From contig MFIK01000037.1 in the NCBI GenBank assembly GCA_001778875.1, forward strand, positions 1 to 44,452: 44,452 bases of DNA, given 5' to 3'. The DNA comes from Candidatus Giovannonibacteria bacterium RIFCSPLOWO2_02_FULL_43_54. GTDB lineage: Bacteria > Patescibacteriota > Minisyncoccia > UBA11713 > 2-01-FULL-45-33. Below are positions 373 to 42,336 of the stretch, piece after piece (the stretch's first letter is position 1; the number at the start of each line of letters is the position of its first letter). Made by a program: the position numbers and the translations under genes. Below the pieces are notes generated by a model. It did no database searches. It was not told where the DNA came from and worked only from the letters and a program-made list of their open reading frames with translations.

Positions 373-373
373 T

Positions 374-1177: not shown

Positions 1178-1183
1178 AATTAT

Positions 1184-1306: not shown

Positions 1307-1329
1307 ATTCATAAGATATTCACAAAAAC

Positions 1330-3045: not shown

Positions 3046-3047
3046 TT

Positions 3048-4244: not shown

Positions 4245-4255
4245 ACCGGCGCGTA

Positions 4256-4348
4256 TTATTTTTTGGCCAATATCACGATCATCGCGATAACGCCAAAACC
4301 AGAAGCTCCTCCCGCGCCCATGCCCAAGCCTCCATTATATCCCATCAT
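4256..4348 (-). CDS. possible 30-aa Gly-rich small membrane peptide
   Basis: MMGYNGGLGMGAGGASGFGVIAMIVILAKK. A TATAAT lies 6 nt upstream of the ATG. It is below the ORF-track size cutoff and supported by sequence pattern only. Confidence 0.25.
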   Translation of the reverse strand: MMGYNGGLGMGAGGASGFGVIAMIVILAKK

Positions 4349-4371
4349 AAGGTTATTATAACAAAGCGATC

Positions 4372-4767
4372 TTACTTATTCCAGCATTTTTTTGACCACT
4401 TCCAGGGTGCCGTGCCGTATTTTTCATAGATGGCGAGCGCCACAGCTTCGTTCCCTTCCTCGGTGTAGAGGTCATGCCCGAGCTTTTTGGCCAGGTCGCC
4501 CCAATAAAGGACATTAATCTGGAATTTTCCGATATCATATTTATTGCGTTCTCCCACCAAGACATTTCCGTCGCCGTCGAAATGCCGCCCCTGTGATTCG
4601 CAGGCTGCTATGCGAGTAAGGACATCTGGGAGGGGTTCTTTTGCAATAGCTTGTATTTCCTTCCGTTGCGGGAAAGGAAAGGCGGGTGACGGGCTCATTT
4701 GCTGTTCATAAGCGACCCTTGGTATCGATAATAGCGCGGCAATTGCCGCGAAAACCAGATAATTCAT
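4372..4767 (-). CDS. secreted lysozyme-like / transglycosylase-like domain protein
   Basis: Signal peptide MNYLVFAAIAALLSIP. The motifs IAACESQG and IGKFQIN...YWG resemble the catalytic Glu region of transglycosylase-like (Rpf/SLT-type) domains. Confidence 0.55.
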   Translation of the reverse strand: MNYLVFAAIAALLSIPRVAYEQQMSPSPAFPFPQRKEIQAIAKEPLPDVLTRIAACESQGRHFDGDGNVLVGERNKYDIGKFQINVLYWGDLAKKLGHDLYTEEGNEAVALAIYEKYGTAPWKWSKKCWNK

Positions 4768-4823
4768 ATATTTACCAATATAAAAACGCCTATCTAGGCG
4801 CTATCATATATGGTCTTTTAAGC

Positions 4824-5273
4824 TTACGTCCTTTGTCCGGAAATGTCAACCTGACTTCCTAAATATGTCAAGAAAAAACTCAATATAAAAAGCGTTGTTG
4901 AGGTTATCGCGGAGATGACGCAATAGGTGCAGAGGGCGTGTATAACGAATAGCTGTAGATAAACAAAATAGGCGGAAGCCAAAAAACCGGTGACCGGAAC
5001 ATATTTTAATATTTTAAAAGCCGGCTCGTTTTTAGTGTCAAAATAAAAAACCGAGATGATGAGCATAAATAAATAATATGCCGCGCCGTAAAGTGCCAAC
5101 GGCAGGCCGAAAACTTTTGAATAGGCGCTCGTTGTCACCTGTTCACACCCCTTAAAGATGACGCAGGGGAGAGTCGCATTTTGATAGTGCTCTATCGTAA
5201 GATAAGAAGCATCAAGAAAGCCCAAAAAGCTTACGACAATAAAAACAATAACGATCAGCCTCTGTCTATCCAT
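4824..5273 (-). CDS. vitamin K epoxide reductase (VKOR) family membrane protein
   Basis: Multi-pass membrane protein with a loop Cys pair (LPCVIFKGCEQV) and an in-membrane CxxC (CTYC). It overlaps the upstream dsbA-like gene by 8 nt. Confidence 0.8.
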   Translation of the reverse strand: MDRQRLIVIVFIVVSFLGFLDASYLTIEHYQNATLPCVIFKGCEQVTTSAYSKVFGLPLALYGAAYYLFMLIISVFYFDTKNEPAFKILKYVPVTGFLASAYFVYLQLFVIHALCTYCVISAITSTTLFILSFFLTYLGSQVDISGQRT

Positions 5274-5994
5274 TCGCTTCTTGAATAAGTTTTACGAAAT
5301 CTTCGTATGACCTCGGCTGTATTTTTTTGCCGTTCAAAAAGAATGTGGGAGTTGAATTTACGAAATTGGCAACTCCGCTTTTATATTGGTCCGACACTTT
5401 GTTTTCTATCGCGGGCAAAGAGATGTCCTCGTCATATTTGGTCATATCAAGCTTCAGGGCTTCGGCATATTTCCTGAATATTTCATCCGCGTTTCCCTTT
5501 TCGGCCCAGTCGGTTTGTTTGTCAAATATCATATCGTGCATCTCCCAAAATTTTCCCTGGTTCGCGGCCGCTTCCGAGGCGTAAGCGGCGGGCTTTGCCT
5601 GCGCGTGCTGGGGAAGCGGGAAGTGCCGATAGACGAACAAGAATTCTTGGCCATGTTCTTTTATAAGCTGCTTTACCAGAGGATGATAGGCTTTACAGGC
5701 AGGACACTGAAAGTCGCTATATTCGATAAGGATATTTTTAGAATCCTTGTTGCCTACGGTCAGGTCATCCGGCGATACCGCGGTAGTGATGATTGGCGAT
5801 GGCCCAGGGTCGGAAGATCTATTTGCGAGTATTATCAACCCAAAAACCGAGCCAACAACCAAAAGTCCTACAACGGACCAGATTATGGCGCTTTTCGCGC
5901 GCTTCTTTTTTGCCGCGGTTTCTGCCGCATTTTTCTTTGCGACCCTGTTTATCTCGTATAATTCTTTTTTTGAAAGATTTTGATTGTTTTCCAT
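5266..5994 (-). CDS. DsbA-family thiol:disulfide oxidoreductase, membrane anchored
   Basis: N-terminal TM (IIWSVVGLLVVGSVFGLIILA) and a thioredoxin-fold CxxC (DFQCPACKAYHP). Confidence 0.85.
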   Translation of the reverse strand: MENNQNLSKKELYEINRVAKKNAAETAAKKKRAKSAIIWSVVGLLVVGSVFGLIILANRSSDPGPSPIITTAVSPDDLTVGNKDSKNILIEYSDFQCPACKAYHPLVKQLIKEHGQEFLFVYRHFPLPQHAQAKPAAYASEAAANQGKFWEMHDMIFDKQTDWAEKGNADEIFRKYAEALKLDMTKYDEDISLPAIENKVSDQYKSGVANFVNSTPTFFLNGKKIQPRSYEDFVKLIQEANG

Positions 5995-6012
5995 ATGGAT
6001 GTTATACCTTTT

Positions 6013-6385
6013 TTATCTGTTTGCTGCAAGTTTTAAGATTGCGTCTGTTAACTCCGGAAAATCTTCCTGCAAAAAGTGCCCGCGGTTTTCAAAAATTTGG
6101 GTGTTTGCGCTCGGTAGCGCTTGTTTATATTTTCTCAAGTCCGCGAAGGGGACTACTGGATCATCTTTGCTTTGGTAGAGAAAAATTTTATCGGATTGTT
6201 TCGCAAGTTTTATAAGGTTTCGAGGAAGCTTAAAATCTGCCAAGGAATATTCCGAATTCGCGTCATCGTATGGCGCTGAGACCAAAAAAGTAGCAGTGAT
6301 TTTTTTCTGGAAATCATTTTCAGACAAATACTTTGCGAGTATCGAATGTATCCCCACCGTGTATTACAATTATTTGTTTTTTCAT
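6013..6385 (-). pseudogene. alpha/beta (YdeN/RBBP9-like) serine hydrolase remnant with internal deletion and frameshift
   Basis: The ATG at 6385 opens MKKQIIVIHGGDTFDTRKVFV* (stop at 6320-6322). The C-terminal part (6013-6357, ...AKYLSENDFQKKITATFLVSAPYDD...SKDDPVVPF...RGHF) is in another frame and has only a GTG start. No GxSxG nucleophile motif is left. Confidence 0.55.
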
Positions 6386-6405
6386 ATCGTTTTTGATTTT
6401 TTATT

Positions 6406-6444
6406 CAACATCATACTAACATCCTCAAGTTTATAAGTATGTTG
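6406..6444. promoter_or_regulatory. repeat copy 1 flanking the ArsR-family gene (CAACAT...ATGTTG dyad, core ACATCCTCAAGTTT)
   Basis: caacatcatactaacatcctcaagtttataagtatgttg. It lies between the arsR-like stop (6445) and the hydrolase remnant start (6385). Confidence 0.5.
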
Positions 6445-6750
6445 TCAGGAGCGTTGGAAGGATTGTAAAAAGCGTACGAATGTTTTCCCGTAGGGCGACA
6501 ATGAGTGTTCTACAAATTTACCGCGATATTTCTTGTTTAAAAGCCCGGCCTGATAAAGGCGCCGTGTGTGTTCGCCTATCGTTTTATCGTTCGCCTTAAG
6601 GGCTTCAGTAATGTCTTCAAGAGTAATGCCTTCCTGATCTGCCACCAAAAGCAGTATTTCAATGCGATGGTGGTTCGAAATACCTTTCAAATGCCTCTCC
6701 ATTTGCCTAGCTGTTTTTATATTTGTCATATTGATATGTTGCCACAACAT
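6445..6750 (-). CDS. ArsR/SmtB-family winged-helix transcriptional regulator
   Basis: ISNHHRIEILLLVADQEGITLEDITEALKANDKTIGEHTRRLYQAGLLNKKYRGKFVEHSL. An alternative start is the ATG at 6729 (MTNIKT...). Confidence 0.85.
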   Translation of the reverse strand: MLWQHINMTNIKTARQMERHLKGISNHHRIEILLLVADQEGITLEDITEALKANDKTIGEHTRRLYQAGLLNKKYRGKFVEHSLSPYGKTFVRFLQSFQRS

Positions 6751-6779
6751 TCTTACATTCTCAAGTTTGTTGGGATGTT
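6745..6779. promoter_or_regulatory. repeat copy 2 flanking the ArsR-family gene (core ACATTCTCAAGTTT)
   Basis: caacattcttacattctcaagtttgttgggatgtt. It overlaps the arsR-like 5' end and the stop codon of the kinase gene. Confidence 0.5.
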
Positions 6780-7350
6780 ACTTCAAAAGGTTAGTTGCTT
6801 CTTTGAAGGCATTTTCTACATCATCAAAAACAGGATAGCCGTATTTCTCCGCCTCTTCTTTGTAATGCGGGCGCTCGCCATAGAAAAATGCTTCTGCTTC
6901 AAGCTTTTGAAGCTCTTCGGTTTTACCCCATCTCGGGTCTTTTTTGTTTCTCTCAAAAGTTTCATCAAAAGATTTTCCGATGAGGACAATGCCGGGAAAT
7001 TTTAGATCCCTTTTGGCTAAGTGGGGAAGAATATTTACTCCTTCAAAAATCACCATTTTTTCATTGCTGACAGATTTATCAAGAATTTCTAATATGCCTG
7101 GCCATAAAGCTTCGGATTGTCTTACTAAATTTTGCCATTGTTGATCATGGTTCGTGGACGTATAGTATATTTTTTCGTCCTGATTTAGATAAAAGTTCAC
7201 CCAAGGTTCATATTTCGGATCATTTTCTAATTTTTCACGCAGATCGTCTGTAGAGATGGATTTTCCACCAAGCTCGTCGGTAATTCTTTTCGCCAGATAG
7301 GATTTGCCGGCGGTTGGTATACCGGTAATGAAAATTTTTTTACTACTCAT
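6778..7350 (-). CDS. P-loop kinase-like protein (AAA/2-phosphoglycerate-kinase-like)
   Basis: Walker A FITGIPTAGKSYLAKRI. The size and layout fit a small nucleotide/metabolite kinase. The substrate is unknown. Confidence 0.65.
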   Translation of the reverse strand: MSSKKIFITGIPTAGKSYLAKRITDELGGKSISTDDLREKLENDPKYEPWVNFYLNQDEKIYYTSTNHDQQWQNLVRQSEALWPGILEILDKSVSNEKMVIFEGVNILPHLAKRDLKFPGIVLIGKSFDETFERNKKDPRWGKTEELQKLEAEAFFYGERPHYKEEAEKYGYPVFDDVENAFKEATNLLK

Positions 7351-7838
7351 TTTTTCAATGATAATATCAATCGAGGTTCGCCGTCGCCGTAGTAATTTTC
7401 TTTGCGCGATTCGGTTTTGAAGCCGAATGGTTCATAGAGTTTGATTGCGGCCAAATTGTCCGGATGCGTTACAAGGTTGATTTTTTTTACGTCTTTTAAC
7501 TCATCTAAAATACGGCGAACGATCTTTTTGCCGACACCCTGTTTTTGGAAGCTGGGGAGTATCGCGAGCCCGCTTATGTATACTGAGCCGTCGTTCCGCT
7601 TTTCATAAGACACGTTGCCGAGTATTTCATAACCCTTTTTGACCAAATAGATCGTTTCACCTTTTTTAAAGGCCTCCTCCCATTCGCTTTTTTTCGTCAT
7701 CGCGGAATAAATTTTTGAGCCGGATAAATTGTTCTCTATCATCAACAACTTATCGATATCATTTAGCCCGGCCTTAACCAATTTAAGTTCGTTTGCCAAA
7801 GGTAACTTCATCATGCAGAGGTCATATTTGCCTTTCAA
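7347..7838 (-). CDS. GNAT-family N-acetyltransferase
   Basis: Acetyl-CoA binding motif LAILPSFQKQGVGKKIVRRILDEL. The start may be the internal MMKLPL. Confidence 0.85.
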   Translation of the reverse strand: MKGKYDLCMMKLPLANELKLVKAGLNDIDKLLMIENNLSGSKIYSAMTKKSEWEEAFKKGETIYLVKKGYEILGNVSYEKRNDGSVYISGLAILPSFQKQGVGKKIVRRILDELKDVKKINLVTHPDNLAAIKLYEPFGFKTESRKENYYGDGEPRLILSLKK

Positions 7839-8104
7839 TAAGTCAACGGTTTTTTTGAGATTTTCATATTTTGCTCTGGCGACTTCGATTGCGCCGATGT
7901 AGGTGTCGGTGTAACGCGCAGATCAGCCGTTCCGGCTGATGGAGCGGTGGCCGTGCCTGTGTCGGCAGGCGTGTTCCTGTCCGCGGGTGCGCCTACGGCG
8001 TCCGCGTTTCTCGCGGCGCTTTGTATTTCGTCAGCGGCAGGCGCAAATACGGGCATTATCAAAAAATTTATCGTGAGAATTATTGCTAGGCGCTTCGTCT
8101 TCAT
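7835..8104 (-). CDS. small secreted Ala/Thr/Pro-rich protein
   Basis: Good signal peptide (MKTKRLAIILTINFLIMPVFAPAADE) followed by a low-complexity A/T/P-rich region encoded by a locally GC-rich stretch. Confidence 0.4.
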   Translation of the reverse strand: MKTKRLAIILTINFLIMPVFAPAADEIQSAARNADAVGAPADRNTPADTGTATAPSAGTADLRVTPTPTSAQSKSPEQNMKISKKPLTY

Positions 8105-8165
8105 TAAAAAATATTAGCAAATATCGCCAAATAAAAAAAGCGCCCGGATTACGGCGCCGTTTGTG

Positions 8166-8537
8166 TTACAGCAAGCTTGTGGAAAGTTTTTCGTAAACTT
8201 CGCAGGCGGTTTTTCTGAAAAATTCGCGTTTCCTCCAAAAGACATTATTTTCGGAAACATCATTTTTTTTGATGCGTCCAAGGTCGAGCGCTGCCATGAC
8301 CCTTGCGTGCCCAAGGTCTTTATCCGAGAGCGTGGGCTTTCCGTCTTCTATGCCCTGATAGATATCTTTCAAATATTGATATTTTCCTGGGCGCGAAGCG
8401 CGGCGTGCCAAAAATTTTTGCGATTCAATATGCCAGACAAAATCGTGTATGGCCACGAAAAAATCATAATTTGCCGCGGCCTCTGATATTTTTTGATATC
8501 TTTTGTCAAGCTCCGAGCGTGTTTTTATCGTGTTCAC
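8166..8537 (-). CDS. hypothetical protein (start uncertain; GTG at 8537 proposed)
   Basis: The track ORF 8166-8792 overlaps the CYTH gene by 188 nt. The first in-frame start after the CYTH stop is GTG 8537 (MNTIKTRSELDKRYQK...), with TACAAT 9 nt upstream. No family recognised. Confidence 0.35.
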   Translation of the reverse strand: MNTIKTRSELDKRYQKISEAAANYDFFVAIHDFVWHIESQKFLARRASRPGKYQYLKDIYQGIEDGKPTLSDKDLGHARVMAALDLGRIKKNDVSENNVFWRKREFFRKTACEVYEKLSTSLL

Positions 8538-8604
8538 AGTGCGTAAATTGTAGCATGCAGACGTAAATTTTTCAATAGCAGGCCTTATATAAAAAAACAG
8601 GCGA

Positions 8605-9132
8605 TTAAACGCTCGTTTCCATTTTCTCGAGCAAAAGATCGCTGTAGGATTTTTCAATAAGATCTTCGCCGCGTATTCCGAACAGACCAATATATTCCAG
8701 GCATTGTTTGTACAATTTTTCTTTTCCGATAGAGCCATTTTTATCAATCGCCTCGATCTCGACGAAAGTTCCAAGTCCGTATACAAAATCAATGTGAAAT
8801 TTGATGTTGTCTACGAAATAAATTCCCCGCACTTTTTCGACAACAGCCAGCATTCCTAAAGATTTCACAAGCATTTCTTTAAGCGCGGAACCAGGCTGAT
8901 TATCAAACAATATTACCTTGGACTCTTTCGGGCATCCCTTGGCTTCTCTTTCATAAAAAATGAGACAGTTCTCGATATTTCCTTCCCGCAGCTTCATGCG
9001 TCCGCACGGAACATTAAAGTACGTGTCAATTTGATGGTCGATGCCTTTGTGCGGGGCATTTTTATCTTTTAATACGTTTCTGATCCGATAAAGGCTATCG
9101 AGCTTCGCCTTGATTTCAACATTAAGGTGCAT
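8605..9132 (-). CDS. CYTH-domain protein (class IV adenylyl cyclase CyaB / triphosphatase-like)
   Basis: It has the N-terminal ExExK signature (LNVEIKAKL), is ~175 aa, and has a C-terminal FVEIEA strand typical of CYTH barrels. Confidence 0.75.
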   Translation of the reverse strand: MHLNVEIKAKLDSLYRIRNVLKDKNAPHKGIDHQIDTYFNVPCGRMKLREGNIENCLIFYEREAKGCPKESKVILFDNQPGSALKEMLVKSLGMLAVVEKVRGIYFVDNIKFHIDFVYGLGTFVEIEAIDKNGSIGKEKLYKQCLEYIGLFGIRGEDLIEKSYSDLLLEKMETSV

Positions 9133-14596: not shown

Positions 14597-15226
14597 TTAA
14601 TCCAACAAATCCTGAAAATGTAATTTAAGTTTAGAATCGTCATCGAAATAATTTGCTTCAAAATAATTTACAAAATTTCCAACAGCAAAGAATTCCGACA
14701 CAAAATCTATTTCATCTTTGCAGGAATAAGGGTATGCAAACACGCTTCTTTGAAGCGGATAAAAACCCAATCTGTGAAGATTATGGCGCAAGGCCTCCCG
14801 CGCCTTTTTATGTTTTTCCGGAATATCAAATATTACAATTCTCCATTTGCCGTCCCATTTTGATGGTTTCTGAAGTACCAAATTCTCAAGCTGATAATTA
14901 AGCAATCTCTTTTTTCCGGATATCGTAAGTTCAATAAACAATTCTCCATTCTTTTCATACATGGCGACTAGCCTGTTTTTTTTAAGTCTTTTAATCGCGC
15001 GCATAATTCTTTCTTTTTTTTTCTGCTTTTCACGAAAATCAGCTCTCTCCATATCAAATAGTTTTAAAAGTTTTACTGTTCCTGGCGCGACAAGCAAAGT
15101 TAATAATACCGCGCCGGTACCTATCGCCGCTAAAACTTTTTTAGACAGCTCCCATCGCCCGCTTTGTGGGATATCGATTTCTGCAAATTTACCCTTATGC
15201 AATTTATATTTTTGCTTTAATGACAT
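14597..15226 (-). CDS. membrane-anchored PaaX-like / Cas2-fold-like putative regulator
   Basis: It has a TM helix, a wHTH-like segment (IKRLKKNRLV...LTISGKKRL), then WRIVIFDIPEKHKKAREALRHNLHRLGFYPLQRSVFAYP, the pattern shared by PaaX N-terminal and Cas2-like ferredoxin folds. Confidence 0.5.
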   Translation of the reverse strand: MSLKQKYKLHKGKFAEIDIPQSGRWELSKKVLAAIGTGAVLLTLLVAPGTVKLLKLFDMERADFREKQKKKERIMRAIKRLKKNRLVAMYEKNGELFIELTISGKKRLLNYQLENLVLQKPSKWDGKWRIVIFDIPEKHKKAREALRHNLHRLGFYPLQRSVFAYPYSCKDEIDFVSEFFAVGNFVNYFEANYFDDDSKLKLHFQDLLD

Positions 15227-19593: not shown

Positions 19594-21258
19594 ATGGAAG
19601 AATCGCCAAAAGGCATTAACGAATGGGAAAAGGCATCCGACGAGGAGCGCTGGAAAATGCTGAACCCGGATAGCGGCGCCTCAAAGGCGGAAAACAAACC
19701 GCCAGAGCCGAAAGCATCCGAACCGGAAAGCAAGAATCAATATGACGCCGTTTTTTCTGCAAGGAGAGAGGCGGAAGAGGAGAGTAAGCCGGCCGGTAAA
19801 ATGCCCGAGCCGGAAAGCTCCGCGCCTAAAGAAGCGGAACCCAAAATAACTTCTCAAGTGAGTCCTGAAGACCGCATGGCTCAAATTGACGCGAGAACCC
19901 AGGAAATTGCCAAGGAAATCAGATTGCTTGATAAATCAAGCGCCGATTTTCGCCAAAAATCGGAAGAATACGAATTTTTGCGAAAAGAATATAACGATTT
20001 ATATCCGAAAACGGAAGATGATTTGAAATTTATGGATAATGCCAAAAACCCATATAACTATATGTCGATGTCTCCGGAGGAAAAAACAAAGCTTTATAAA
20101 ATTCAGACCGAAGTCGCCAGAGGAAAAGAATCAAAAGGGAAAACTATTGCAAGCCCCGAGGCAATAGAAAACTTTGTCCCGGCTGAAGACCGCGTTAGAA
20201 GTTTAAAAGAAAACATGGTTGTCGGTGCTCGCAACAAAGACACGGAAGATTTTCTTAAGATGATAGCTGAACCGTACGAAAGAGTCGGTAAAATGAAAGA
20301 AGACAAAAGCGGGAAAACTTTTTTGGAAAAAGCAAAAGAAGTTGTTTCCCGCGGAAAAGAATGGATTACAAAGCCGTCTTTGTTGCGCGAAAGATTGTTG
20401 GGTATCGCAACGGCCGGAATTTGGGATATACACCAAGCGGACAAATTCCGCAGAGGCAAGAAAAAAACTGGAAAAGAACTGGCGGAAGTGGCGAAAGAAA
20501 TACAGTCCAGGCGCGGTTTGTTGACTTATCCGGAAGCATTTGAACTGCACAATAAGCTTGCCGCAGGTGAAAAGCTGGGGGAAAGCGTTACCCGGGAAAA
20601 AATTGATAAAATTGCTTGCGAGATAAAACGCGAGCGGAATTTAAAATATATCAACGCGGTATTGCAATACGCAGATCACGCCTTACAGGAACGTTTAAAA
20701 GGTTATAGCGATGCTAAGGGAACACAGCTCCAGCTTGACCCGGAAAGAAGGCGCGCAATGCTGGGAGAACTTGGTAAAAAACTTGTGGCTATGCAAGATA
20801 GTCCAAAATCAGCAGATGCTAAAGAATTTTCTAAAATTATCAAAGATAATCTTAATCCGAAATATTGGACAAGGTATGCGTATGGCGGTTTGGAAGCCGC
20901 GCTTTGGGCTGTTGGTATTTGGTGGTATACGTCAGGTTCAGAATCGGCTTTGGTCAAAGGGCCGGTTAAATACATGGCTCCTTCGGGAAGCGAGGGCGCG
21001 CCTTCAAAACTAACTTTAAACGCAGGAGATAATCCATGGAATGCGCTTAAAGAATGGCTGCAGCAAAATGGCATTCCCAATCCTTCCGACATGCAGGTGC
21101 AGGCAACAGATACGATAGTCAGCCATTCGACGGGATATGGCGTTACTCCATGGGATATTGCGGGGTCGCCGCTAGACACACAACTGCCTGTCGGATACGA
21201 GCTTGATGTTTCTGAAGCTGCCAGGCAATTGGAATGGATTAAAAATCTGCACAAGTAA
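19594..21258 (+). CDS. hypothetical 554-aa protein: disordered K/E/P-rich N-terminus, long helical region, one TM near the C-terminus, ~110-aa C-terminal domain
   Basis: No signal peptide. The TM is GGLEAALWAVGIWWY. The C-terminus is rich in G/P/W (GDNPWNALKEWLQQNGIPNP...TPWDIAGSPLD). It is the first gene of the operon ending at the 24641 terminator. Confidence 0.6.
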   Translation: MEESPKGINEWEKASDEERWKMLNPDSGASKAENKPPEPKASEPESKNQYDAVFSARREAEEESKPAGKMPEPESSAPKEAEPKITSQVSPEDRMAQIDARTQEIAKEIRLLDKSSADFRQKSEEYEFLRKEYNDLYPKTEDDLKFMDNAKNPYNYMSMSPEEKTKLYKIQTEVARGKESKGKTIASPEAIENFVPAEDRVRSLKENMVVGARNKDTEDFLKMIAEPYERVGKMKEDKSGKTFLEKAKEVVSRGKEWITKPSLLRERLLGIATAGIWDIHQADKFRRGKKKTGKELAEVAKEIQSRRGLLTYPEAFELHNKLAAGEKLGESVTREKIDKIACEIKRERNLKYINAVLQYADHALQERLKGYSDAKGTQLQLDPERRRAMLGELGKKLVAMQDSPKSADAKEFSKIIKDNLNPKYWTRYAYGGLEAALWAVGIWWYTSGSESALVKGPVKYMAPSGSEGAPSKLTLNAGDNPWNALKEWLQQNGIPNPSDMQVQATDTIVSHSTGYGVTPWDIAGSPLDTQLPVGYELDVSEAARQLEWIKNLHK

Positions 21259-21267
21259 TCGATAAAT

Positions 21268-21555
21268 ATGAATAAAAAAGAAAAACAAAACAGAATAAAA
21301 GAATTGATCGGAAATTCTTTAATACCGAAAGAAGTTAAGCAAATTGTGCTGAAAAATCTCGTTAAATATGACGAAAAAATATTAGACGGCATGCTTGAAT
21401 CGCTTGCGCGCGAGAGCGTTGCCATGAATAAATTGGCTTCGGATTTGATGCGTTTTGACGTTGAATCGCAAAAGCGCTGGGACGACCTCGAAATTGAACA
21501 GTTAAAAGTTGCCGATGATTTTGTCGAGCAGGCTTTCAAAGATTTGACCGGTTAA
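21268..21555 (+). CDS. hypothetical small helical protein
   Basis: 95 aa, starting 9 nt after the previous stop. No motif recognised. Confidence 0.5.
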   Translation: MNKKEKQNRIKELIGNSLIPKEVKQIVLKNLVKYDEKILDGMLESLARESVAMNKLASDLMRFDVESQKRWDDLEIEQLKVADDFVEQAFKDLTG

Positions 21556-21586
21556 AATAGCGCCCGCCATATGCTATTATTTACAT

Positions 21587-21982
21587 ATGGCACAGGAATC
21601 GCTAAATGACGAAATAAAATGGCTTGAAGAACGGCTCTCCGCCAAAAAGACGGAGCTTTTGGAGGCAGGTGAATCCAAAGCCGAAAAAGAAGTCGTAAAA
21701 GACATTTTGAGAGAGACGGCAATTTTGCCGCCTCCGCCTAATTCACAGTCAGCGTCCGCACAAAGCGATGACGCGGCGCTAAAAGCGGCGCATGATTTGG
21801 AGGAAAAAGAACACTCGCAAATCGTTGAAACTCTGGTCGCGGACGCGCTAAAGAACGGAATAATCCACGCGATAAAGATTGCCGAAGCCATGAGAAATCC
21901 GCATTTGCTTGATGATTTTCACGATACTCTGGCGGATAAATATTATCAAAAACTTTTGGAATCGAGAAAGATCAAACAATGA
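21587..21982 (+). CDS. hypothetical small helical protein
   Basis: 131 aa. Its stop overlaps the ATPase start (ATGA at 21979-21982). Confidence 0.5.
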   Translation: MAQESLNDEIKWLEERLSAKKTELLEAGESKAEKEVVKDILRETAILPPPPNSQSASAQSDDAALKAAHDLEEKEHSQIVETLVADALKNGIIHAIKIAEAMRNPHLLDDFHDTLADKYYQKLLESRKIKQ

Positions 21983-24411
21983 CCTCGATTATCGATCTGA
22001 ATACGCTTTTGTTTTACGTCATCTCCGGCTTTTTCGCGGCGTTTGCCCTGTGGCTTGTTTTATTTTTATGGTACTTGAAAGAAAAACGCTCGCGTGACGT
22101 GGGAGGCGGATTGGGTCTCCGGCTTTTTTTGGTTTCAGCACCCGAAGGAATAATCGAAAAAGGCGGGAATATCGAAGAAGCGGTGAAAAATTTTATCTCG
22201 AAAATGGAGCAATTTTTGAGCGGGCTTTATTCAATAAAGAAAGAAGGGTTTTCTTCCAAACTTTGGAAAGGGCCTCTATTCGCTTTAGAAATTGCCGCGC
22301 ATAACAATGGCAATGAGATATTCTTTTATGTCGCCTTTCCGCGGGTTTATGAAAAACTTTTGGAAAGCAAGCTGCACGGCGCGTTTCCCGAAGCGAAAAT
22401 CGAGGCGGTGCCGGACTACAACATTTTTCATCCCACGGGTGCCACGGCGGGCGCTGTTGTCCTTTCTTCGGAATCGACCATTTTGCCGATAAAAACTTAT
22501 CAGAAATTAAATATCGATCCGCTGGAAACCATCACGGCCCCCTTTTCCAAAGTGGATGAATTCGGCGAGGGCGCCTCGATTCAGATCGTTTTGAGGCCGG
22601 CAGGAGAGGAGATCCAAAAGAGGGCCCATACGGCAGCCAGGCGCTTAAAAGAAGGCGAATCAAGGAAGGATGTTCTTGCAAAAAACAGTTTTTGGGACGA
22701 CCTCAAAAAATTCATGTTCCCTAAAACAGACAAAGAAAAACAAAAGCCGCTCGCGGTGGACGAGGATCTTGCGAAGCTTTTTGAAGAAAAAAGCGGCAAG
22801 GTTATTTTTGAGGCCAATATCAGAATAGTCGCATCCTCAAAAAACACGAATGAGGCGGATGAAATATTAAGAAATATTTCAGGGAGTTTTTCGCAGTATC
22901 AAAATCCGGAGGGCTCAAGCCTGAAAATAAAAGAGCTCGGAGGGAAAGCTTTACGATCCATGATCGAAAAATATTCTTTCCGCCTTTTTGACGAAAAAAA
23001 TAAGATATATCTGAACGTGGAGGAGCTCTCAAGCATTTACCATTTTCCATATTTAAAGCGCGCGGCTTCCCAAGTAAGAATGCTCAAATCGCAGGAATCA
23101 GCGCCTCCGGTGAATGTGCCGAAAGAAGGCATTTCGATAGGCCTATCTAAATACAGGGGCGAAGAGCGCGAGATTAGGATAAAAAAAGATGACCGCAGGC
23201 GGCATTTTTATTCGATCGGGCAGACAGGAACCGGCAAATCAACACTGATGCTAAAGATGATCATTCAAGATATACAAAACGGCGAGGGCATTGCGGTAAT
23301 CGACCCGCATGGGGATCTCATTGATAAAGTTTTGGGGCATATCCCCAAAGAACGAGCGGATGATGTCATTGTGTTTGACCCGGGCGACGTGCCTCATCCT
23401 ATGGGACTCAACATGCTTGAATACGACACTAAGTATCCGGAGCAGAAAAGCCTTATTGTGAATGAACTTTTTGAGATTTTCAATAAGCTTTTCAACATGT
23501 CGGTCGCCGGAGGCCCGATGTTCGAGCAATATTTTAGGAATTCAACCGCGCTAGTTTTGGAAGACCCGGAAAGCGGAAGCACTCTTCTTGAGATTTCTCG
23601 GGTGCTGTCAGATAAAGCTTTCCGCGACCATAAGCTTTCCAAATCAAAAAACATCGTGGTAAATATGTTTTGGCAGCAGATCGCGGAAAAGGCAGGAGGG
23701 GAATCGTCTCTAGCAAATATGGTGCCTTATGTTGTATCAAAAATTGACACATTTTTGTCTAATGAAATTTTGCGCCCTATTATCGCCCAGCAGCATTCCG
23801 CTTTCAATATACGCGACGTAATGGATCGGAAAAAAATTCTTCTACTCAATCTTTCAAAAGGAAAACTTGGCGAGCTCAATTCCAGCTTATTAGGTTTGAT
23901 CATGGTCGGTAAAATTTTGATGGCTGCCTTATCGCGCGTTGACATTCCGGAAGGAGAAAGAAAAGATTTCTATTTATATATTGACGAGTTTCAGAACGTG
24001 ACGACGAAATCCATCGCAACGATACTTTCAGAGGCAAGAAAATATAAATTGAATCTGATAATTACGCACCAATTCATCGGACAGCTGGAGGAGGACATCA
24101 AAAAAGCGGTTTTCGGGAACGTCGGCACATTGACCGCTTTCCGCATCGGCACCGATGACGCCGAATACATTGAAAAGCAATTTGCGCCGACTTTCACCGC
24201 GAAAGACTTGCTCAATATCGATAATCTGAACGCCTACATTAAATTGCTCATAGACGGCCAAACTTCAAAACCATTCAACATGTTCATCCCATTCCCGCCC
24301 AAAGGTAACGATGAAATCGCCGGCTACATAAAAGAGCTCTCCCGCCAAAAATATTCCCGTCCCCGTGAAGAAGTGGAGGAGGAGATAAGAACAAGGCATC
24401 AAGGAGTATAA
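21979..24411 (+). CDS. membrane-anchored FtsK/HerA-superfamily ATPase, type IV secretion coupling-protein (TraD/VirD4)-like
   Basis: N-terminal TM (LLFYVISGFFAAFALWLVLFLWY), Walker A (SIGQTGTGKSTLM...VIDPHGDL), Walker B (FYLYIDEFQNV), and ARKYKLNLIITHQ. Confidence 0.8.
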   Translation: MTSIIDLNTLLFYVISGFFAAFALWLVLFLWYLKEKRSRDVGGGLGLRLFLVSAPEGIIEKGGNIEEAVKNFISKMEQFLSGLYSIKKEGFSSKLWKGPLFALEIAAHNNGNEIFFYVAFPRVYEKLLESKLHGAFPEAKIEAVPDYNIFHPTGATAGAVVLSSESTILPIKTYQKLNIDPLETITAPFSKVDEFGEGASIQIVLRPAGEEIQKRAHTAARRLKEGESRKDVLAKNSFWDDLKKFMFPKTDKEKQKPLAVDEDLAKLFEEKSGKVIFEANIRIVASSKNTNEADEILRNISGSFSQYQNPEGSSLKIKELGGKALRSMIEKYSFRLFDEKNKIYLNVEELSSIYHFPYLKRAASQVRMLKSQESAPPVNVPKEGISIGLSKYRGEEREIRIKKDDRRRHFYSIGQTGTGKSTLMLKMIIQDIQNGEGIAVIDPHGDLIDKVLGHIPKERADDVIVFDPGDVPHPMGLNMLEYDTKYPEQKSLIVNELFEIFNKLFNMSVAGGPMFEQYFRNSTALVLEDPESGSTLLEISRVLSDKAFRDHKLSKSKNIVVNMFWQQIAEKAGGESSLANMVPYVVSKIDTFLSNEILRPIIAQQHSAFNIRDVMDRKKILLLNLSKGKLGELNSSLLGLIMVGKILMAALSRVDIPEGERKDFYLYIDEFQNVTTKSIATILSEARKYKLNLIITHQFIGQLEEDIKKAVFGNVGTLTAFRIGTDDAEYIEKQFAPTFTAKDLLNIDNLNAYIKLLIDGQTSKPFNMFIPFPPKGNDEIAGYIKELSRQKYSRPREEVEEEIRTRHQGV

Positions 24412-24439
24412 TTTAAAATATTACGTTATCCTAAAAAAA

Positions 24440-24643
24440 ATGGACGAAATCACAAAAAGAATGTCAGGCAGTATTTGCGGCCATTGCGGCGGACGGGCGG
24501 ATGATTGGAAATGCCCAAAATGCGGAAAATCATTAAAGCAGTTTGATCCGTTTCATTGGAAAAATTGCACGAAAGGCGGCAAAATGAAAGCTCAATGTAA
24601 CGCCTGCGCCGAAGCCGAAGATAACTGCAAATGCGCAAAATGA
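24440..24643 (+). CDS. Cys-rich small protein (zinc-ribbon-like)
   Basis: 67 aa with 10 Cys arranged as CGHCGG...CPKCG...C...CNAC...CKC. It is the last gene before the terminator. Confidence 0.6.
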   Translation: MDEITKRMSGSICGHCGGRADDWKCPKCGKSLKQFDPFHWKNCTKGGKMKAQCNACAEAEDNCKCAK

Positions 24644-24668
24644 CCTAAACCGAGTTTAGGTCATTTTT
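24641..24668 (+). terminator. rho-independent terminator
   Basis: tgacctaaac-cga-gtttaggtca forms a perfect 10-bp stem, followed by ttttt. It overlaps the stop codon of the Cys-rich gene. Confidence 0.85.
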
Positions 24669-24684
24669 GTGAACCTGATCGAAT

Positions 24685-24984
24685 TTAGCGAACGCCAACT
24701 TTTCGCTCTAAAACCCTTATGCGTTCTTCGTGTTTTTGATCTTTTATGTTTTCTTTAATTTCCGCAATATCGCCTCCTAAAACGCTGATGGATTTATTGA
24801 TGTCCGCAAATCCCTTTCTCATTTCTTCCCTAAACGGCTTAACTGCGTCATCAATAAGCGGCTTTACTCTTTCTTCTATTTTTTGCTCCACAATAGCTTC
24901 CACCCCTGGCAATATAACCTGCTCGGTAAATTCTCCCAAATCTTTCATCGTTATTGGTTTCGAGCTTAATCCTTTTTTAACCAT
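24685..24984 (-). CDS. hypothetical coiled-coil protein
   Basis: 99 aa, E/K-rich, heptad-like. No family recognised. Confidence 0.5.
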   Translation of the reverse strand: MVKKGLSSKPITMKDLGEFTEQVILPGVEAIVEQKIEERVKPLIDDAVKPFREEMRKGFADINKSISVLGGDIAEIKENIKDQKHEERIRVLERKVGVR

Positions 24985-30236: not shown

Positions 30237-32873
30237 ATGTCATTTTTAGGAAAAATCTTCGGAGGATTGGGTTCAAATGAAGGGGTTATAGAGGAACTAA
30301 AGCCGATCGTGGAGCAAATTAACGCGCTTGAGCCTGAATTTAAAAAACTTTCAGATGCAAAACTGAAAGCAAAAACTTTGGAATTTAGAAAAAGATTGGG
30401 AGAGGGAGAAACCCTCGACGACATTCTCCCCGAAGCCTTTGCTGCTGTCCGAGAAGCTTCTAAAAGAACTTTGGGCCAAAGGCATTATGATTCGCAATTG
30501 ATAGGAGGGATGGTGATGCATCGCGGGCAGATAGCGGAGATGAAAACAGGAGAAGGAAAAACTTTGGTCGCAACCTTGCCGATGTATTTGAACGCGCTTT
30601 CAGGGGATGGCGCGCATCTGATAACAGTTAACGATTATTTGGCGCGGAGAGACGCTACCTGGATGGGGCAAATTTACAACGCGCTTGGGCTTTCCGTAGG
30701 AGCATTAAACCACGAGGTGAGCTATTTATATGACGCATCTGCAGTATCCGTCGCGGACGACAAAAATGAAGATACTCTTGGCGCTTTCAAAATAGTACAC
30801 GAATTTTTGCGCCCATGTTCGCGGAGCGAGGCTTATGGCGCGGACATTACTTATGGTACGAACAACGAATACGGTTTCGATTATTTGCGGGACAATATGG
30901 TCTACGCACCGTCGCAGCTTTCACAAAGACAAGGAGTCCATCATTTTGCGATAGTTGACGAGGTAGATTCCATTTTGATCGACGAAGCGAGAACGCCTTT
31001 AATTATTTCGGCTCCCGACACGGAATCCGGCGAACTTTATAAAACATTTGCCAAAATCGCACCGAGACTAAAAGAGGGAGCAGATTATAATGTTGATGAA
31101 AAAATGAAAGCGGTTTCAATTACCGAAGAGGGAATTGAAAAAGTTGAGAATATTCTGGGAGTAAAAGATATTTATACGGAAAAAGGGATAAAATATGTGC
31201 ATCATTTGGAACAGGCTCTGCGGGCGCAGGCATTATTTTTTCTGGATAAAGATTATGTCGTAAAAAACGGCGAGGTGATCATTGTTGACGAATTTACAGG
31301 GCGCTTGATGCCCGGTAGGCGCTGGTCCGAAGGACTTCACCAGGCGATTGAGGCAAAAGAAGGCGTGACAGTGCAGAAAGAATCAAGAACGCTAGCAACG
31401 ATAACATTTCAAAATTATTTCAGGTTGTACGAAAAGCTCGCCGGCATGACTGGGACCGCGCAGACTTCCGCCGAAGAATTCCATAAAGTTTATAAATTGG
31501 AAGTCGTCAGCGTGCCTACGAACCGCCCGATGCAAAGACGTGATCTGCCGGATAAGATTTTTCAATCTGAAAAAGGGAAATTCACCGCAATCGCGCGCGA
31601 AGTAAGAGCGATGCACGAAAAGGGGCAGCCGGTGCTCATCGGTACCGTTTCAATCGAGAAAAATGAAAGGCTGGCGGCGATATTGGGGAGAGAGGGGATT
31701 CCGCATAAAATATTGAACGCAAAAAATCATGAAGCCGAAGCCGAAATAATAGCCCAGGCCGGGCGGCTGGGCGGAGTAACTGTGGCGACGAATATGGCGG
31801 GTCGCGGAGTAGACATAATTCTTGGGGGCAATCCGCCGAACTTGAAGGAAGCCGAAAAAGTCAGAGAAGCTGGAGGTCTTGCGGTAATCGGCACCGAGCG
31901 CCACGAAGCTCGCCGGATAGACAATCAGCTAAGAGGGCGCGCGGGCCGTCAGGGCGACCCCGGCGCTTCGCAATTTTATGTTTCAATGGAGGACGACCTT
32001 ATGCGCATTTTCGGCTCCGACCGCATAAAAAATATGATGGGGCGCTTCGGGATTCCCGAAGACGAGGCCATAGAGAACAAGATGGTATCAAACGCCATAG
32101 AATCTGCGCAGGAGAAGATCGAAGGATACAATTTCGATTCAAGAAAGCATGTTCTTGAATACGATGACGTTATGAATAAGCAAAGGAAGGCAATTTATGG
32201 ACGTAGGTTCGAGATTCTTTTCGGCAAGGCGGAAGAAATTGAAGAAAAAGCAAAAATTATTTTAACGGATGTTTTAGCAAAGATCGTCGAAGTTCACACG
32301 ATATCCGAACTCGCAGAAGAATGGAACCGCGAGGAGATAGAGGAAAATATTAAAGCGATCTTCGGGGATATCAATTCTATTCATGAGGCATTTCATAAGG
32401 CGGAATCCAGAGAGGATTTAACTGATTTATTGAATAAATATCTTGAAGATTCTTTCTTAAAAAAGAAAGAATCGGTTGGAGAATTCGCTGAAGCCGTGAG
32501 AATGACGATGTTGCGCGCGATAGATGTTTTATGGATGGAACATCTTGAAGCGATGGAATACATGCGGGGAAGCGTGCGCTTGCGCGCCTATGGCCAGCGC
32601 GACCCTTTGATCGAATATAAAAACGAAGGCGCTAAAATGTTCCAGCAGCTGGAAGGGCACATTAACGCCTACATCGCGAATCTGATATTTAAAATCGGCC
32701 CTTCAGCCGGTATGTCCACAACACCGATTCAAAATCAGGGACTAAAATTGAATTTGAATAATGGTTCCAAAAATTTCCAACACTCGGTGTCGAACAAAAA
32801 AGGTGAGATCGGCAGGAACGACCCATGCCCCTGCGGAAGCGGGAAGAAATATAAGCGTTGTCATGGGAGATAA
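30237..32873 (+). CDS. secA: preprotein translocase ATPase SecA
   Basis: MKTGEGKTL Walker A, DEVDSILIDEARTPLIIS, TNMAGRGVDI, and the C-terminal zinc motif CPCGSGKKYKRCHG. Confidence 0.97.
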   Translation: MSFLGKIFGGLGSNEGVIEELKPIVEQINALEPEFKKLSDAKLKAKTLEFRKRLGEGETLDDILPEAFAAVREASKRTLGQRHYDSQLIGGMVMHRGQIAEMKTGEGKTLVATLPMYLNALSGDGAHLITVNDYLARRDATWMGQIYNALGLSVGALNHEVSYLYDASAVSVADDKNEDTLGAFKIVHEFLRPCSRSEAYGADITYGTNNEYGFDYLRDNMVYAPSQLSQRQGVHHFAIVDEVDSILIDEARTPLIISAPDTESGELYKTFAKIAPRLKEGADYNVDEKMKAVSITEEGIEKVENILGVKDIYTEKGIKYVHHLEQALRAQALFFLDKDYVVKNGEVIIVDEFTGRLMPGRRWSEGLHQAIEAKEGVTVQKESRTLATITFQNYFRLYEKLAGMTGTAQTSAEEFHKVYKLEVVSVPTNRPMQRRDLPDKIFQSEKGKFTAIAREVRAMHEKGQPVLIGTVSIEKNERLAAILGREGIPHKILNAKNHEAEAEIIAQAGRLGGVTVATNMAGRGVDIILGGNPPNLKEAEKVREAGGLAVIGTERHEARRIDNQLRGRAGRQGDPGASQFYVSMEDDLMRIFGSDRIKNMMGRFGIPEDEAIENKMVSNAIESAQEKIEGYNFDSRKHVLEYDDVMNKQRKAIYGRRFEILFGKAEEIEEKAKIILTDVLAKIVEVHTISELAEEWNREEIEENIKAIFGDINSIHEAFHKAESREDLTDLLNKYLEDSFLKKKESVGEFAEAVRMTMLRAIDVLWMEHLEAMEYMRGSVRLRAYGQRDPLIEYKNEGAKMFQQLEGHINAYIANLIFKIGPSAGMSTTPIQNQGLKLNLNNGSKNFQHSVSNKKGEIGRNDPCPCGSGKKYKRCHGR

Positions 32874-32874
32874 T

Positions 32875-33429
32875 ATGACCGAAAAAGATATTCTCAACCT
32901 AATAATCGAAGATAAGTGGATGATGAATATTCTGCATATTGCTGAAAAATTAGATTTACCGGATTGGGTTGTGGGGGCGGGATTCGTAAGGAATAAGGTT
33001 TGGGATTATCTGCACGGATATAATAAATTGGGAGTTGATACAGCCGACATAGATTTGGTTTATTATGATCCAAGCGGCAATGGTCAAGATGCAGATGAAA
33101 AATTATCGGAAAAGCTGAAGGGAGAAACTGGGGTTAAATGGGAAGTGGTGAACGAGGCGTACGCACATAAATGGAATAATTTGCCCCCATACAAATCTAC
33201 CGAAGACGCATTATCCCAGTGGCCGGAAACAGCTACCGCTATCGGGGTTAAGTTAGAGAATGGAGAGTTAAAGTTGATTGCTCCTCATGGCATTAGTGAT
33301 TTGGTTAATTTGATTATTCGTCCAAGTCCGAAATTTGCTGATACTAGCAAGGTTAAGGAAAGGGTGAGGCAGAAAAAGTGGTTAGAAAAATGGCCAAAGT
33401 TAAAAGTAGCCCCGTGGGGTAGTGAATAA
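32875..33429 (+). CDS. nucleotidyltransferase-family protein (DUF925/NTP_transf_6-like)
   Basis: The ATG lies 1 nt after the secA stop. Motifs are WVVGAGFVRNKVWDYLHG, DIDLVYYD, and WEVVNEAYAH. The family name is from memory of this pattern. Confidence 0.6.
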   Translation: MTEKDILNLIIEDKWMMNILHIAEKLDLPDWVVGAGFVRNKVWDYLHGYNKLGVDTADIDLVYYDPSGNGQDADEKLSEKLKGETGVKWEVVNEAYAHKWNNLPPYKSTEDALSQWPETATAIGVKLENGELKLIAPHGISDLVNLIIRPSPKFADTSKVKERVRQKKWLEKWPKLKVAPWGSE

Positions 33430-38877: not shown

Positions 38878-39059
38878 ATTGTCCCTTGTTTAAACTTAAT
38901 TTCATCTGAAAATTATGCTAGCATGGTTAGATAATAAAGTCCACGATATAGCTAAAAATAAACTGTTACCACCGCGCAATGAATACCCGGCTATTTTGGA
39001 GAAAATTTAGGTGTTGTATAATGAATTTATTAAAAAGCAATAGAGGAATTAAAAATTTA

Positions 39060-39134
39060 ATGCCCCACTTACACGAAGAAAAAATTAAATTCTTAGAAAA
39101 AAAGGCGAACGATATTCGTGAGTCGATTATCTAG
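39060..39134 (+). pseudogene. 24-codon fragment of a transketolase N-terminal subunit gene (second, divergent copy)
   Basis: MPHLHEEKIKFLEKKANDIRESII* versus MPHLHDDKIKFLEQKANDIRQSIIE at 39713. 59 of 75 nt are identical, and 12 of the 16 differences are at third codon positions. Confidence 0.75.
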
Positions 39135-39173: not shown

Positions 39174-39389
39174 ATGATTAATGAGTTTATAGAGAAAAAG
39201 CTTAAAGAGGCCAAATATAAAATTCTTAAGAATGGCTCCTATTTTGCCGAAATACCGAGTATAAAAGGCGTTTGGGCGGATTCGCATAATTTAGAAGATT
39301 GCAGAAAAGAACTCAAAGAAGTTTTAGAAGATTGGTTACTGCTAAATGTAAGGGATAGAAACCGAATTCCAGGTTTTAGCCTAACATAA
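39174..39389 (+). CDS. hicB: HicB-family antitoxin-like protein
   Basis: YFAEIPSIKGVWADSHNLEDCRKELKEVLEDWLLL matches the HicB N-terminal domain pattern. 71 aa. Confidence 0.65.
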   Translation: MINEFIEKKLKEAKYKILKNGSYFAEIPSIKGVWADSHNLEDCRKELKEVLEDWLLLNVRDRNRIPGFSLT

Positions 39390-39536: not shown

Positions 39537-39713
39537 ATGACCATAAAAAGTTATTTTCAGTTGGGTACAGTGTTTCTTGTTATAACTTTTTTGGCTTTAA
39601 TGGTTGGAGTTGATTTAAGACGCGCTTACGAGTTTTATATATTTATTGGCACACCCTTAGCGTTAAGTATGATATTCTTTATAATTGGGAGTTTAAGATA
39701 TTTTAAAAAATAA
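39537..39713 (+). CDS. 58-aa two-TM small membrane protein, translationally coupled to tkt
   Basis: AGAGGAG lies 11 nt upstream of the ATG at 39537. The stop overlaps the tkt start (TAATG). Confidence 0.45.
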   Translation: MTIKSYFQLGTVFLVITFLALMVGVDLRRAYEFYIFIGTPLALSMIFFIIGSLRYFKK

Positions 39714-40573: not shown

Positions 40574-40578
40574 TTTTT

Positions 40579-40785
40579 ATGTTTAATTTATCAGTAAGAA
40601 TGGACATAAGGGCGAAGGATTTCGAATCAAAAGCCTATTTTATTATCTTCGGGCTTGTCGCCGCCCTTCTTGCGTTGCAGATCTATAATGTCGCATTTGG
40701 CGCGCTTGTAAGCGACCCGGTGGCCGCGGCGCAAAATCTCGGAGTATTTAGGCCTCATATTGAAAACAGCGATCTCGGCCGATAA
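40579..40785 (+). CDS. 68-aa small membrane protein between the two tkt subunit genes
   Basis: One TM (YFIIFGLVAALLALQIYNVAF). The gaps to the flanking genes are 5 and 9 nt. Confidence 0.4.
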   Translation: MFNLSVRMDIRAKDFESKAYFIIFGLVAALLALQIYNVAFGALVSDPVAAAQNLGVFRPHIENSDLGR

Positions 40786-40794
40786 TAATTTTTT

Positions 40795-42304: not shown

Positions 42305-42336
42305 CTTTACATATTCTCGTGCTAATATAGAAGTAT

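Follow-up and report, generated by a model that had tools for sequence, protein, structure and literature searches.

A small helical protein and a coupling-protein-type ATPase form the conserved core of a composite locus in Candidatus Giovannonibacteria and other Patescibacteria

Contig MFIK01000037.1 of Candidatus Giovannonibacteria bacterium RIFCSPLOWO2_02_FULL_43_54 (assembly GCA_001778875.1; the whole stretch of 44,452 nt that was analysed is called the window below) carries a row of five genes centred on an ATPase related to the coupling proteins (T4CPs) of type IV secretion systems (T4SSs). A preliminary description, made from the sequence alone, treated the row as one operon encoding a translocation system. 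Comparison with related loci supports a different view: the conserved core of the locus is a two-gene module, found across the ultra-small Patescibacteria, that comprises the ATPase and the 131-aa protein encoded directly ahead of it (p131), whereas the two genes further upstream, encoding p554 and p95, are a lineage-specific accessory pair outside this core. The elements of the locus are listed below with the evidence for each, including the list of open reading frames (ORFs) and an AlphaFold2 (AF2) model.

19594-21258, + strand: p554 gene, encoding a K/E/P-rich, mostly helical protein of 554 aa (ORF list)
21268-21555, + strand: p95 gene, encoding a helical protein of 95 aa (ORF list)
21552-21580, + strand: promoter-like element before p131 (promoter scan, related loci)
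21587-21982, + strand: p131 gene, 131 aa (ORF list; ATGA overlap with the ATPase gene)
21979-24411, + strand: ATPase gene, 810 aa, membrane-anchored T4CP type (ORF list, Pfam, AF2 model)
24440-24643, + strand: p67 gene, 67 aa with nine Cys, a possible zinc ribbon (ORF list)
24637-24672, strand not assigned: hairpin followed by a T-run, resembling an intrinsic terminator (inverted repeat, folding energy)

The layout is as first described, with five ORFs on the same strand separated by gaps of 9, 31, -4 (the ATGA overlap) and 28 nt, and the hairpin that ends the row is indeed strong. It consists of a perfect 14-nt inverted repeat (24637-24650 / 24654-24667) with a 3-nt loop, followed by TTTTT, and folds with -19.3 kcal/mol (z = -5.65), none of 200 shuffled sequences folding as well; it is missing from the list returned by a consensus terminator scan. 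Since convergent genes flank the hairpin and an A-run lies upstream of it, it could terminate transcription in both directions.

Conservation was followed through 90 related loci, 80 of which were supplied by a scan that took a single genome for each species, the others being contigs encoding particular homologues; counts out of 91 include the window. Searches with hidden Markov models (HMMs) and tblastn place p131 directly upstream of the ATPase, or fused to it in frame, in 75 of 87 loci, and the 12 exceptions are mostly contig ends or ORF-filter artefacts (at locus L005 tblastn recovers a p131 that is 92% identical). The idea that the partners are co-conserved with the ATPase therefore holds for p131 and fails for the others, p554 and p95 being present in 5 of 91 loci and p67 in none of the 90. 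The pair occurs in two forms. A separate p131 gene is accompanied by an ATPase with an N-terminal transmembrane helix in 34 of 34 loci, while 41 further loci encode a fusion protein of 905-970 aa (about 920), with the p131 domain ahead of the ATPase and without a hydrophobic segment in every case (41/41). The fused forms, from Nomura-, Taylor-, Campbell- and Zambryskibacteria-like genomes, fall into a single clade of a neighbour-joining tree, which argues for one fusion event inherited by a large group and not for repeated convergence.

In alignment, p131 begins with an amphipathic helix; a variable linker rich in Pro connects this to a helical C-terminal domain that is conserved and contains the invariant residues D109 and H112 within the motif LDxFHD. 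Its 83 database homologues are all small hypothetical proteins. No relatives were found among Pfam families or PDB sequences, since both a profile search against PDB and Pfam scans of 36 family members returned only scattered chance matches. One homologue of 140 aa (P0279) bears the Joint Genome Institute name "replicative superfamily II helicase"; it has no Pfam domain on record, and the name is probably spurious. More generally, p554, p95, p131, p67 and the two ORFs downstream gave nothing above threshold in Pfam, NCBIfam, PADLOC or PHROG.

The second component of the module, the ATPase, is a relative of T4CPs of the VirD4/TraD/TrwB class with intact Walker motifs and an unusual build, and the following parts of it can be delimited.

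22006-22074, + strand: transmembrane helix, about residues 10-32 (hydropathy 2.37 at residue 10; helix 7-45 in the model)
22114-23103, + strand: DUF8128 domain, about residues 46-375 (AF2 model, Foldseek)
23131-24303, + strand: T4CP nucleotide-binding domain with an inserted all-alpha domain (motifs, Pfam/NCBIfam, TrwB alignment)
23218-23241, + strand: Walker A motif GQTGTGKS, residues 414-421 (invariant in 54 homologues)
23965-23991, + strand: Walker B motif DFYLYIDEF (YIDEF, residues 667-671, invariant in 54 homologues)

Both the membrane anchor and the Walker A and B motifs had been recognised in the preliminary description. On the Kyte-Doolittle scale with a 19-residue window, where a transmembrane helix conventionally reaches about 1.6, the ATPase is the only one of the five proteins with a robust transmembrane helix. 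The likeness to TraD and VirD4 also stands, and the protein is not an FtsK. Pfam matches to T4SS-DNA_transf (2.2e-8), TrwB_AAD_bind (5.4e-8), DUF87 and TraG-D_C are weak but above threshold, matches to the NCBIfam TraD and VirD4-like models are far below the equivalog cut-offs, and a profile of 54 ATPase sequences run against solved structures finds TrwB (6.6e-8), DotL (4e-4) and HerA, with no VirB4 among the matches. Neither Pfam nor NCBIfam detects an FtsK_SpoIIIE or FtsK gamma domain, and the single transmembrane helix differs from a multi-span anchor. Replacement of FtsK was considered as the main explanation and dropped, given the lack of FtsK domains in the ATPase and the presence of FtsK/TcpA-like "t4cp2" matches in a Paceibacteria genome (table in PMC12102498).

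Contrary to the initial impression of an unrecognised family, the ATPase combines Pfam DUF8128 (PF26449) with T4CP domains. The DUF8128 assignment, which covers the N-terminal half, comes from the precomputed annotation of the cluster of the ATPase and of all its close relatives; DUF8128 comprises 1,172 clusters at 50% identity, and more than 7,600 homologues of the ATPase exist with PF26449, TrwB_AAD_bind, DUF87 and T4SS-DNA_transf. No mention of DUF8128 was found in the literature searched.

The AF2 model of the ATPase (mean predicted local distance difference test score, pLDDT, 85.5) helps to explain the unusual build. Its C-terminal half matches TrwB in Foldseek (E 1.6e-12, TM-score 0.64-0.68), and the inserted all-alpha domain corresponds to a highly conserved helical block at about residues 488-616. 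The best E-values of the complete model are with TrwK/VirB4 (E 2e-14), to which it is collinear over 850-930 columns. When residues 40-380 are taken separately (pLDDT 85.7), the top 14 PDB matches are all TrwK/VirB4 chains, with E-values from 8e-8 to 6e-6 and a TM-score on the query of 0.43-0.48, and the next match follows at E 4.5e-3. These matches to VirB4 chains lead us to view DUF8128 as a domain resembling the VirB4 N-terminal domain, placed ahead of a VirD4-like motor. At the sequence level, Pfam reports no AAA_10 or CagE_TrbE_VirB match in the ATPase.

The 31-nt gap between p95 and p131 holds a promoter-like element, found in a promoter scan, with the -35 hexamer TTAAAA, a 17-nt spacer and the extended -10 sequence TGcTATTAT. 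Between the end of this -10 hexamer and the ATG of p131 lie 6 nt, which contain no Shine-Dalgarno sequence. A TAnnAT motif ending at exactly this distance from the p131 start recurs in 9 of 24 related loci (seven of them with the TG extension), any other spacing being seen in two at most, and the nine include carriers of p554-p95 upstream. The extended form TGnTAnnAT precedes p131 in the window (21552-21589), in L089, L090, L009, L021, L008 and L010 and in others. As far as sequence can tell, this recurrence suggests conserved leaderless transcription of p131 in these Patescibacteria; p131 and the ATPase gene may thus constitute an ancestral transcription unit with its own promoter and a leaderless mRNA, in which case p554-p95 would be a separate or additional transcription unit upstream.

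The accessory genes have a much narrower distribution. Only five p554 homologue clusters exist among 5.8 billion proteins, and HMM searches find p554 in the window, L009, L089, L090 and L021, that is, in this genome, three Giovannonibacteria-like relatives and one Yanofskybacteria genome. Homologues of p95 are confined to the same five loci and to the same position, in the order p554, p95, p131, ATPase. The late transmembrane segment first proposed for p554 is doubtful, as its maximum hydropathy is only 0.76 (ALWAVGIWWYTSGSESALV, residue 436) and it is not conserved in the L009 and L089 homologues; with the segment weak and unconserved, the outward-facing C-terminal domain proposed along with it loses its support. 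A LysM-like appearance of the p554 C-terminus was likewise dropped for want of profile support. The gene caller starts p554 21 codons later (533 aa), and the first 21 residues are conserved in the L089 and L090 homologues. As for p67, it contains nine cysteines and not ten, its zinc-ribbon matches in Pfam are all sub-threshold, and tblastn finds no relative of it in the 90 related loci; it appears to be a strain-specific neighbour.

These distributions bear on the idea, close to the preliminary description, of a single dedicated system for translocation in which p554, p95, p131 and the ATPase, and perhaps p67 as well, all work together. The genes lie close to one another on the same strand, their order recurs in five loci, one of which belongs to a Yanofskybacteria genome with an ATPase 47.5% identical and a p554 about 34% identical to those of the window, and every p554 homologue of visible genomic place sits in this slot. 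Nevertheless, 86 of 91 loci lack the p554-p95 pair. Among them is the closest relative (ATPase identity 87%), with a 129-aa gene and a ClpB-like AAA+ gene in the slot; in L007 (ATPase identity 76%) the slot holds a 485-aa AAA protein. With a conserved promoter-like element lying between p95 and p131, with p67 having no homologue in any locus and with the p554 transmembrane segment unsupported, such a four-gene system is improbable also where p554 and p95 occur. The description of all five genes as a single operon system fails on the same grounds, three of the four partners not being co-conserved and a promoter-like element lying inside the row. We therefore retain the composite view of the locus, with p131 and the ATPase as its core.

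Homologues of the ATPase reach well beyond Patescibacteria, being present on 322 plasmid records from Bacillus, Streptomyces, Clostridium, Staphylococcus, haloarchaea and Sulfolobus and in a few Bacillus phages. On conjugative-type plasmids of Bacillus (for example NZ_CP154917.1 and NZ_OX419568.1), a protein annotated as "DUF87 domain-containing protein" aligns with residues 58-790 of the window ATPase (24% identity, E 7e-46), so that the homology spans both the DUF8128-like N-terminal domain and the nucleotide-binding domain with its all-alpha insertion. The plasmid protein differs in lacking the transmembrane helix and in ending with a long acidic tail, and the DNA ahead of its gene showed no p131-like gene. 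On two different plasmids its gene immediately precedes that of a Replic_Relax relaxase and a T4SS operon of Gram-positive type, in which an AAA_10 VirB4 and a member of the TcpE family are encoded; this relaxase-adjacent place is the classical coupling-protein position. Among phage proteins, PHROG 5156, a family of unknown function with the same architecture, matches ATPase residues 72-804 (4.6e-80). In the jumbo Bacillus phage G (L093 4249-8391), gp156 is a full-length homologue (25% identity, 91% coverage), and directly upstream lies gp155, a VirB4-like protein with AAA_10 and TraG P-loop matches. Among viral contigs there was a single weak match (L091), which extends over the C-terminal ATPase domain only.

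The phage homologues, together with PADLOC matches of the ATPase to mad8 (1.3e-15) and HerA models and the variable slots on both sides of the core pair, could be taken to mean that the cluster is a mobile-element remnant or serves in defence with a HerA/mad8-like ATPase at its centre. Yet the PADLOC matches are limited to the P-loop domain, and with HerA-NurA, defence HerA and the MADS protein mad8 the ATPase shares P-loop-level matches only. The chromosomal synteny of the core is stable over very divergent lineages, the window ORFs scanned include no integrase, nuclease, Sir2, NurA or methylase partner, and the GC profile has no obvious deviation over the five-gene region. Taken together, these observations make a mobile or defensive origin of the cluster highly improbable.

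Comparison with characterised T4SS ATPases brings out the mixed character of the protein. TrwB of R388, VirD4 and DotL share with it the P-loop nucleotide-binding domain carrying an inserted all-alpha domain; in these canonical T4CPs, however, the transmembrane domain sits directly on the nucleotide-binding domain and no VirB4-like domain is present, whereas the window ATPase has a domain of about 330 aa in between. VirB4 (TrwK of R388) resembles it in two-domain size and collinear fold, although no VirB4 signal is detectable at the sequence level (Pfam, PDB profile search). VirB4 has a small partner, VirB3, that is a separate protein in some systems and fused in others; p131 differs from VirB3 in having no transmembrane segment. 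The combination of a small helical protein with a T4CP-type ATPase also recalls CagZ-Cagbeta, TraM-TraD and DotM/N-IcmSW-DotL, and Cagbeta-CagZ structures are among the Foldseek matches of the ATPase. This is a functional analogy only, as p131 showed no relation to the CagZ, TraM or DotM/N-IcmSW adaptors in sequence or structure.

Canonical T4CPs are linked to a relaxase or a T4SS, and the window ATPase has no such linkage in the ORFs scanned. In agreement with the preliminary description, a Pfam scan of the larger ORFs between about 9.3 and 38.6 kb, inside the flanking ORFs at 296-9132 and 39713-43584, revealed no VirB4 and no gene for a relaxase, an integrase or a pilus, and neither a T4SS nor a relaxase gene was found near the ATPase in the 90 related loci. 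A tblastn search with a Bacillus VirB4 query, run on the whole window and on flanking sequence fetched for the 90 loci (up to 8 kb), likewise gave no VirB4-like match, at a sensitivity so low that even the homologous ATPase went unmatched. The ATPase may thus be called an orphan in the window, and probably not in the genome, since a Giovannonibacteria genome tabulated by Quinonero-Coronel et al. 2025 (PMC12102498) has its t4cp1 match about 80 genes from those for VirB4, VirB3 and VirB2. That survey reports 5,713 VirD4-like T4CP homologues in 2,918 of 3,035 Patescibacteria genomes, 148 of them near virB4, and VirB4 in 2,417. Taken as a family, the proteins described here most probably correspond to those homologues: they belong to the same phylum, are chromosomal and relaxase-less and usually lie far from virB4. 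In the survey they are known as "t4cp" profile matches, and p131, split or fused forms and a VirB4-like domain are not mentioned there.

The interpretation that we somewhat favour is that of a composite locus whose core, p131 and the T4CP-type ATPase, acts as the coupling or energising motor of a T4SS encoded elsewhere in the chromosome. In such a scheme, p131 and the ATPase would form one complex, probably a ring like that of TrwB. The conserved C-terminal helical domain of p131 might dock on the VirB4-like domain, which is its neighbour in the fused clade, and its N-terminal helix might tether the motor to the membrane or to a partner complex; we propose that such a tether would make the transmembrane helix dispensable once p131 had been fused. 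The motor would then couple or energise the transport of a substrate, DNA or protein, by a chromosomal T4SS, and p554-p95 would be an optional addition, placed upstream by insertion in a small number of lineages. Assignment of the ATPase itself to a patescibacterial T4SS encoded elsewhere, as its coupling or energising ATPase, is a tentative step, for which we see slightly less than an even chance.

Several facts weigh against this interpretation. T4CP homologues are present in 96% of the surveyed genomes compared with 80% for VirB4, VirB4-negative drafts keep t4cp1 matches, and the homologue of Southlakia epibionticum is reported to be dispensable while its T4SS is essential (PMC12102498); moreover, the essential T4SS cluster of that species, defined by transposon sequencing, contains no recognisable coupling or relaxase proteins (Wang et al. 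2023). On the structural side, the assignment of the VirB4-type N-terminal domain relies on Foldseek TM-scores of just 0.43-0.48 together with collinearity, and because the fusion was a single event, the split of 41/41 against 34/34 loci does not amount to independent replication.

Much of the same evidence would suit a motor that works without any T4SS. The p131-ATPase pair could be a plasmid-derived T4CP domesticated as a housekeeping translocase for nucleic acids (or proteins), an idea we hold to be unlikely if still worth serious attention; a near-universal motor of this kind would be tethered by its own transmembrane helix or by p131, with add-ons such as p554-p95 plugging in, and this version too we see as having a limited chance. 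Possible roles include DNA uptake beside ComEC, TraB/FtsK-like pumping of chromosomes or plasmids and cell-to-cell DNA transfer. Such a motor would account for the greater number of genomes with the ATPase than with VirB4, for the VirB4-negative drafts with t4cp1 and for the reported dispensability in S. epibionticum, and the authors of the survey state that exaptation of the T4CP homologues cannot be ruled out (PMC12102498). It would also fit the strength of conservation, since ATPase identity exceeds DnaX identity in all ten loci that hold both (for example, 52% vs 44% and 48% vs 36%), as well as the existence of a whole clade without a membrane anchor, the high conservation of the all-alpha domain and the housekeeping contexts of the gene, which in the fused clade has secY-adk-map ahead of it and ndk behind it, and in L001 adjoins ftsA. 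Many of the genomes, however, are incomplete metagenome-assembled genomes (MAGs), so the gap between 96% and 80% may reflect detection sensitivity. As for an FtsK substitute in particular, the "t4cp2" matches in a Paceibacteria genome make a replacement of FtsK unnecessary. Finally, the closest homologues outside Patescibacteria function in T4SS operons, a setting that agrees better with the coupling role outlined above.

The surroundings of the module are of a housekeeping character. Pfam-scanned ORFs of the window include a MurA-type EPSP-synthase-family enzyme, MreB, the delta' subunit of DNA polymerase III, ribosome recycling factor, a PMT_2 GT-C glycosyltransferase, GtrA, DnaX, MurB, SecA, IscS/NifU, superoxide dismutase and HtrA; scans for tRNA genes and Rfam families gave no matches in the window. 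The named closest relatives of the ATPase are Candidatus Giovannonibacteria. In the clade with membrane-anchored ATPases the ancestral gene order is PMT_2 (on the opposite strand), p131, ATPase, GtrA and dnaX. A functional tie to the PMT_2 and GtrA glycosylation genes was considered in view of this synteny (21 and 18 loci, respectively) and rejected: the fused clade has different neighbours, and the synteny is therefore taken as inherited gene order and not as evidence of function. In the window, only 9-24 nt separate p554, which starts at 19594, from the divergent PMT_2 gene, which starts at 19584 (or at 19569, with Met6 as the start), so that both promoters must lie within the neighbouring coding sequence.

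The slot 3' of the ATPase gene is variable, holding p67, p99 and p236 in the window as opposed to GtrA directly in L007 and L008; no flanking direct repeats that might represent insertion scars were found around p67, p99 and p236. The intact gene of L089 is followed, about 2.7 kb further downstream, by a 24-aa copy of the extreme C-terminus of the ATPase (83% identical; 14698-14769). Five small inserted genes come between them, one being a homologue of the 99-aa ORF of the window (24685-24984), and the copy looks like the scar of an insertion into the 3' end of the ATPase gene. Two short contigs with the ATPase gene, L036 and L087 (2.5 and 2.9 kb), come from MAGs labelled Planctomycetales and Bacillota, labels that are probably binning errors.

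Elsewhere in the window, the ORF at 38979-39134, ending in "...MPHLHEEKIKFLEKKANDIRESII", duplicates the N-terminus of a transketolase-like gene that starts at 39713 (MPHLHDDKIKFLEQKANDIRQSII; 39713-39790). The ORF at 39174-39389 looks, by eye, like a HicB antitoxin, and the region has a low GC content (0.346), which suggests a small insertion with target duplication. A protein with a PaaX_M / Cas2-like domain is encoded near the PMT_2 genes both in the window (14597-15226, - strand) and in L008 (4418-4939), and no array of clustered regularly interspaced short palindromic repeats (CRISPR) was seen. The last 113 nt of secA (30237-32873) are also the first of the ORF listed for an NTP_transf_6 nucleotidyltransferase (32761-33429), the overlap being 32761-32873; the Pfam match of this ORF begins at residue 60, and its true start is thus probably downstream.

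Relative to the literature searched, the new elements are the obligate p131 partner, the split form with and the fused form without a transmembrane helix, the VirB4-like N-terminal domain, the full-length homology to Bacillus plasmid coupling proteins that lack a transmembrane helix, and the leaderless-type promoter. Patescibacteria depend on other cells, and in the sole genetically tractable species a chromosomal T4SS is essential for epibiotic growth; the published clusters lack a recognisable coupling protein. The present analysis defines a near-universal coupling-type ATPase, composed of a VirB4-like N-terminal domain and a VirD4-like motor and accompanied by a small obligate partner with which it is fused throughout one clade, and ties the family to the little-studied plasmid coupling proteins of Bacillus that lack a transmembrane helix. 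Its mixture of VirB4 and VirD4 features bears on the divergence of the two T4SS ATPases, and the two-part module provides handles for finding the substrate or for showing that the motor has been re-used otherwise.

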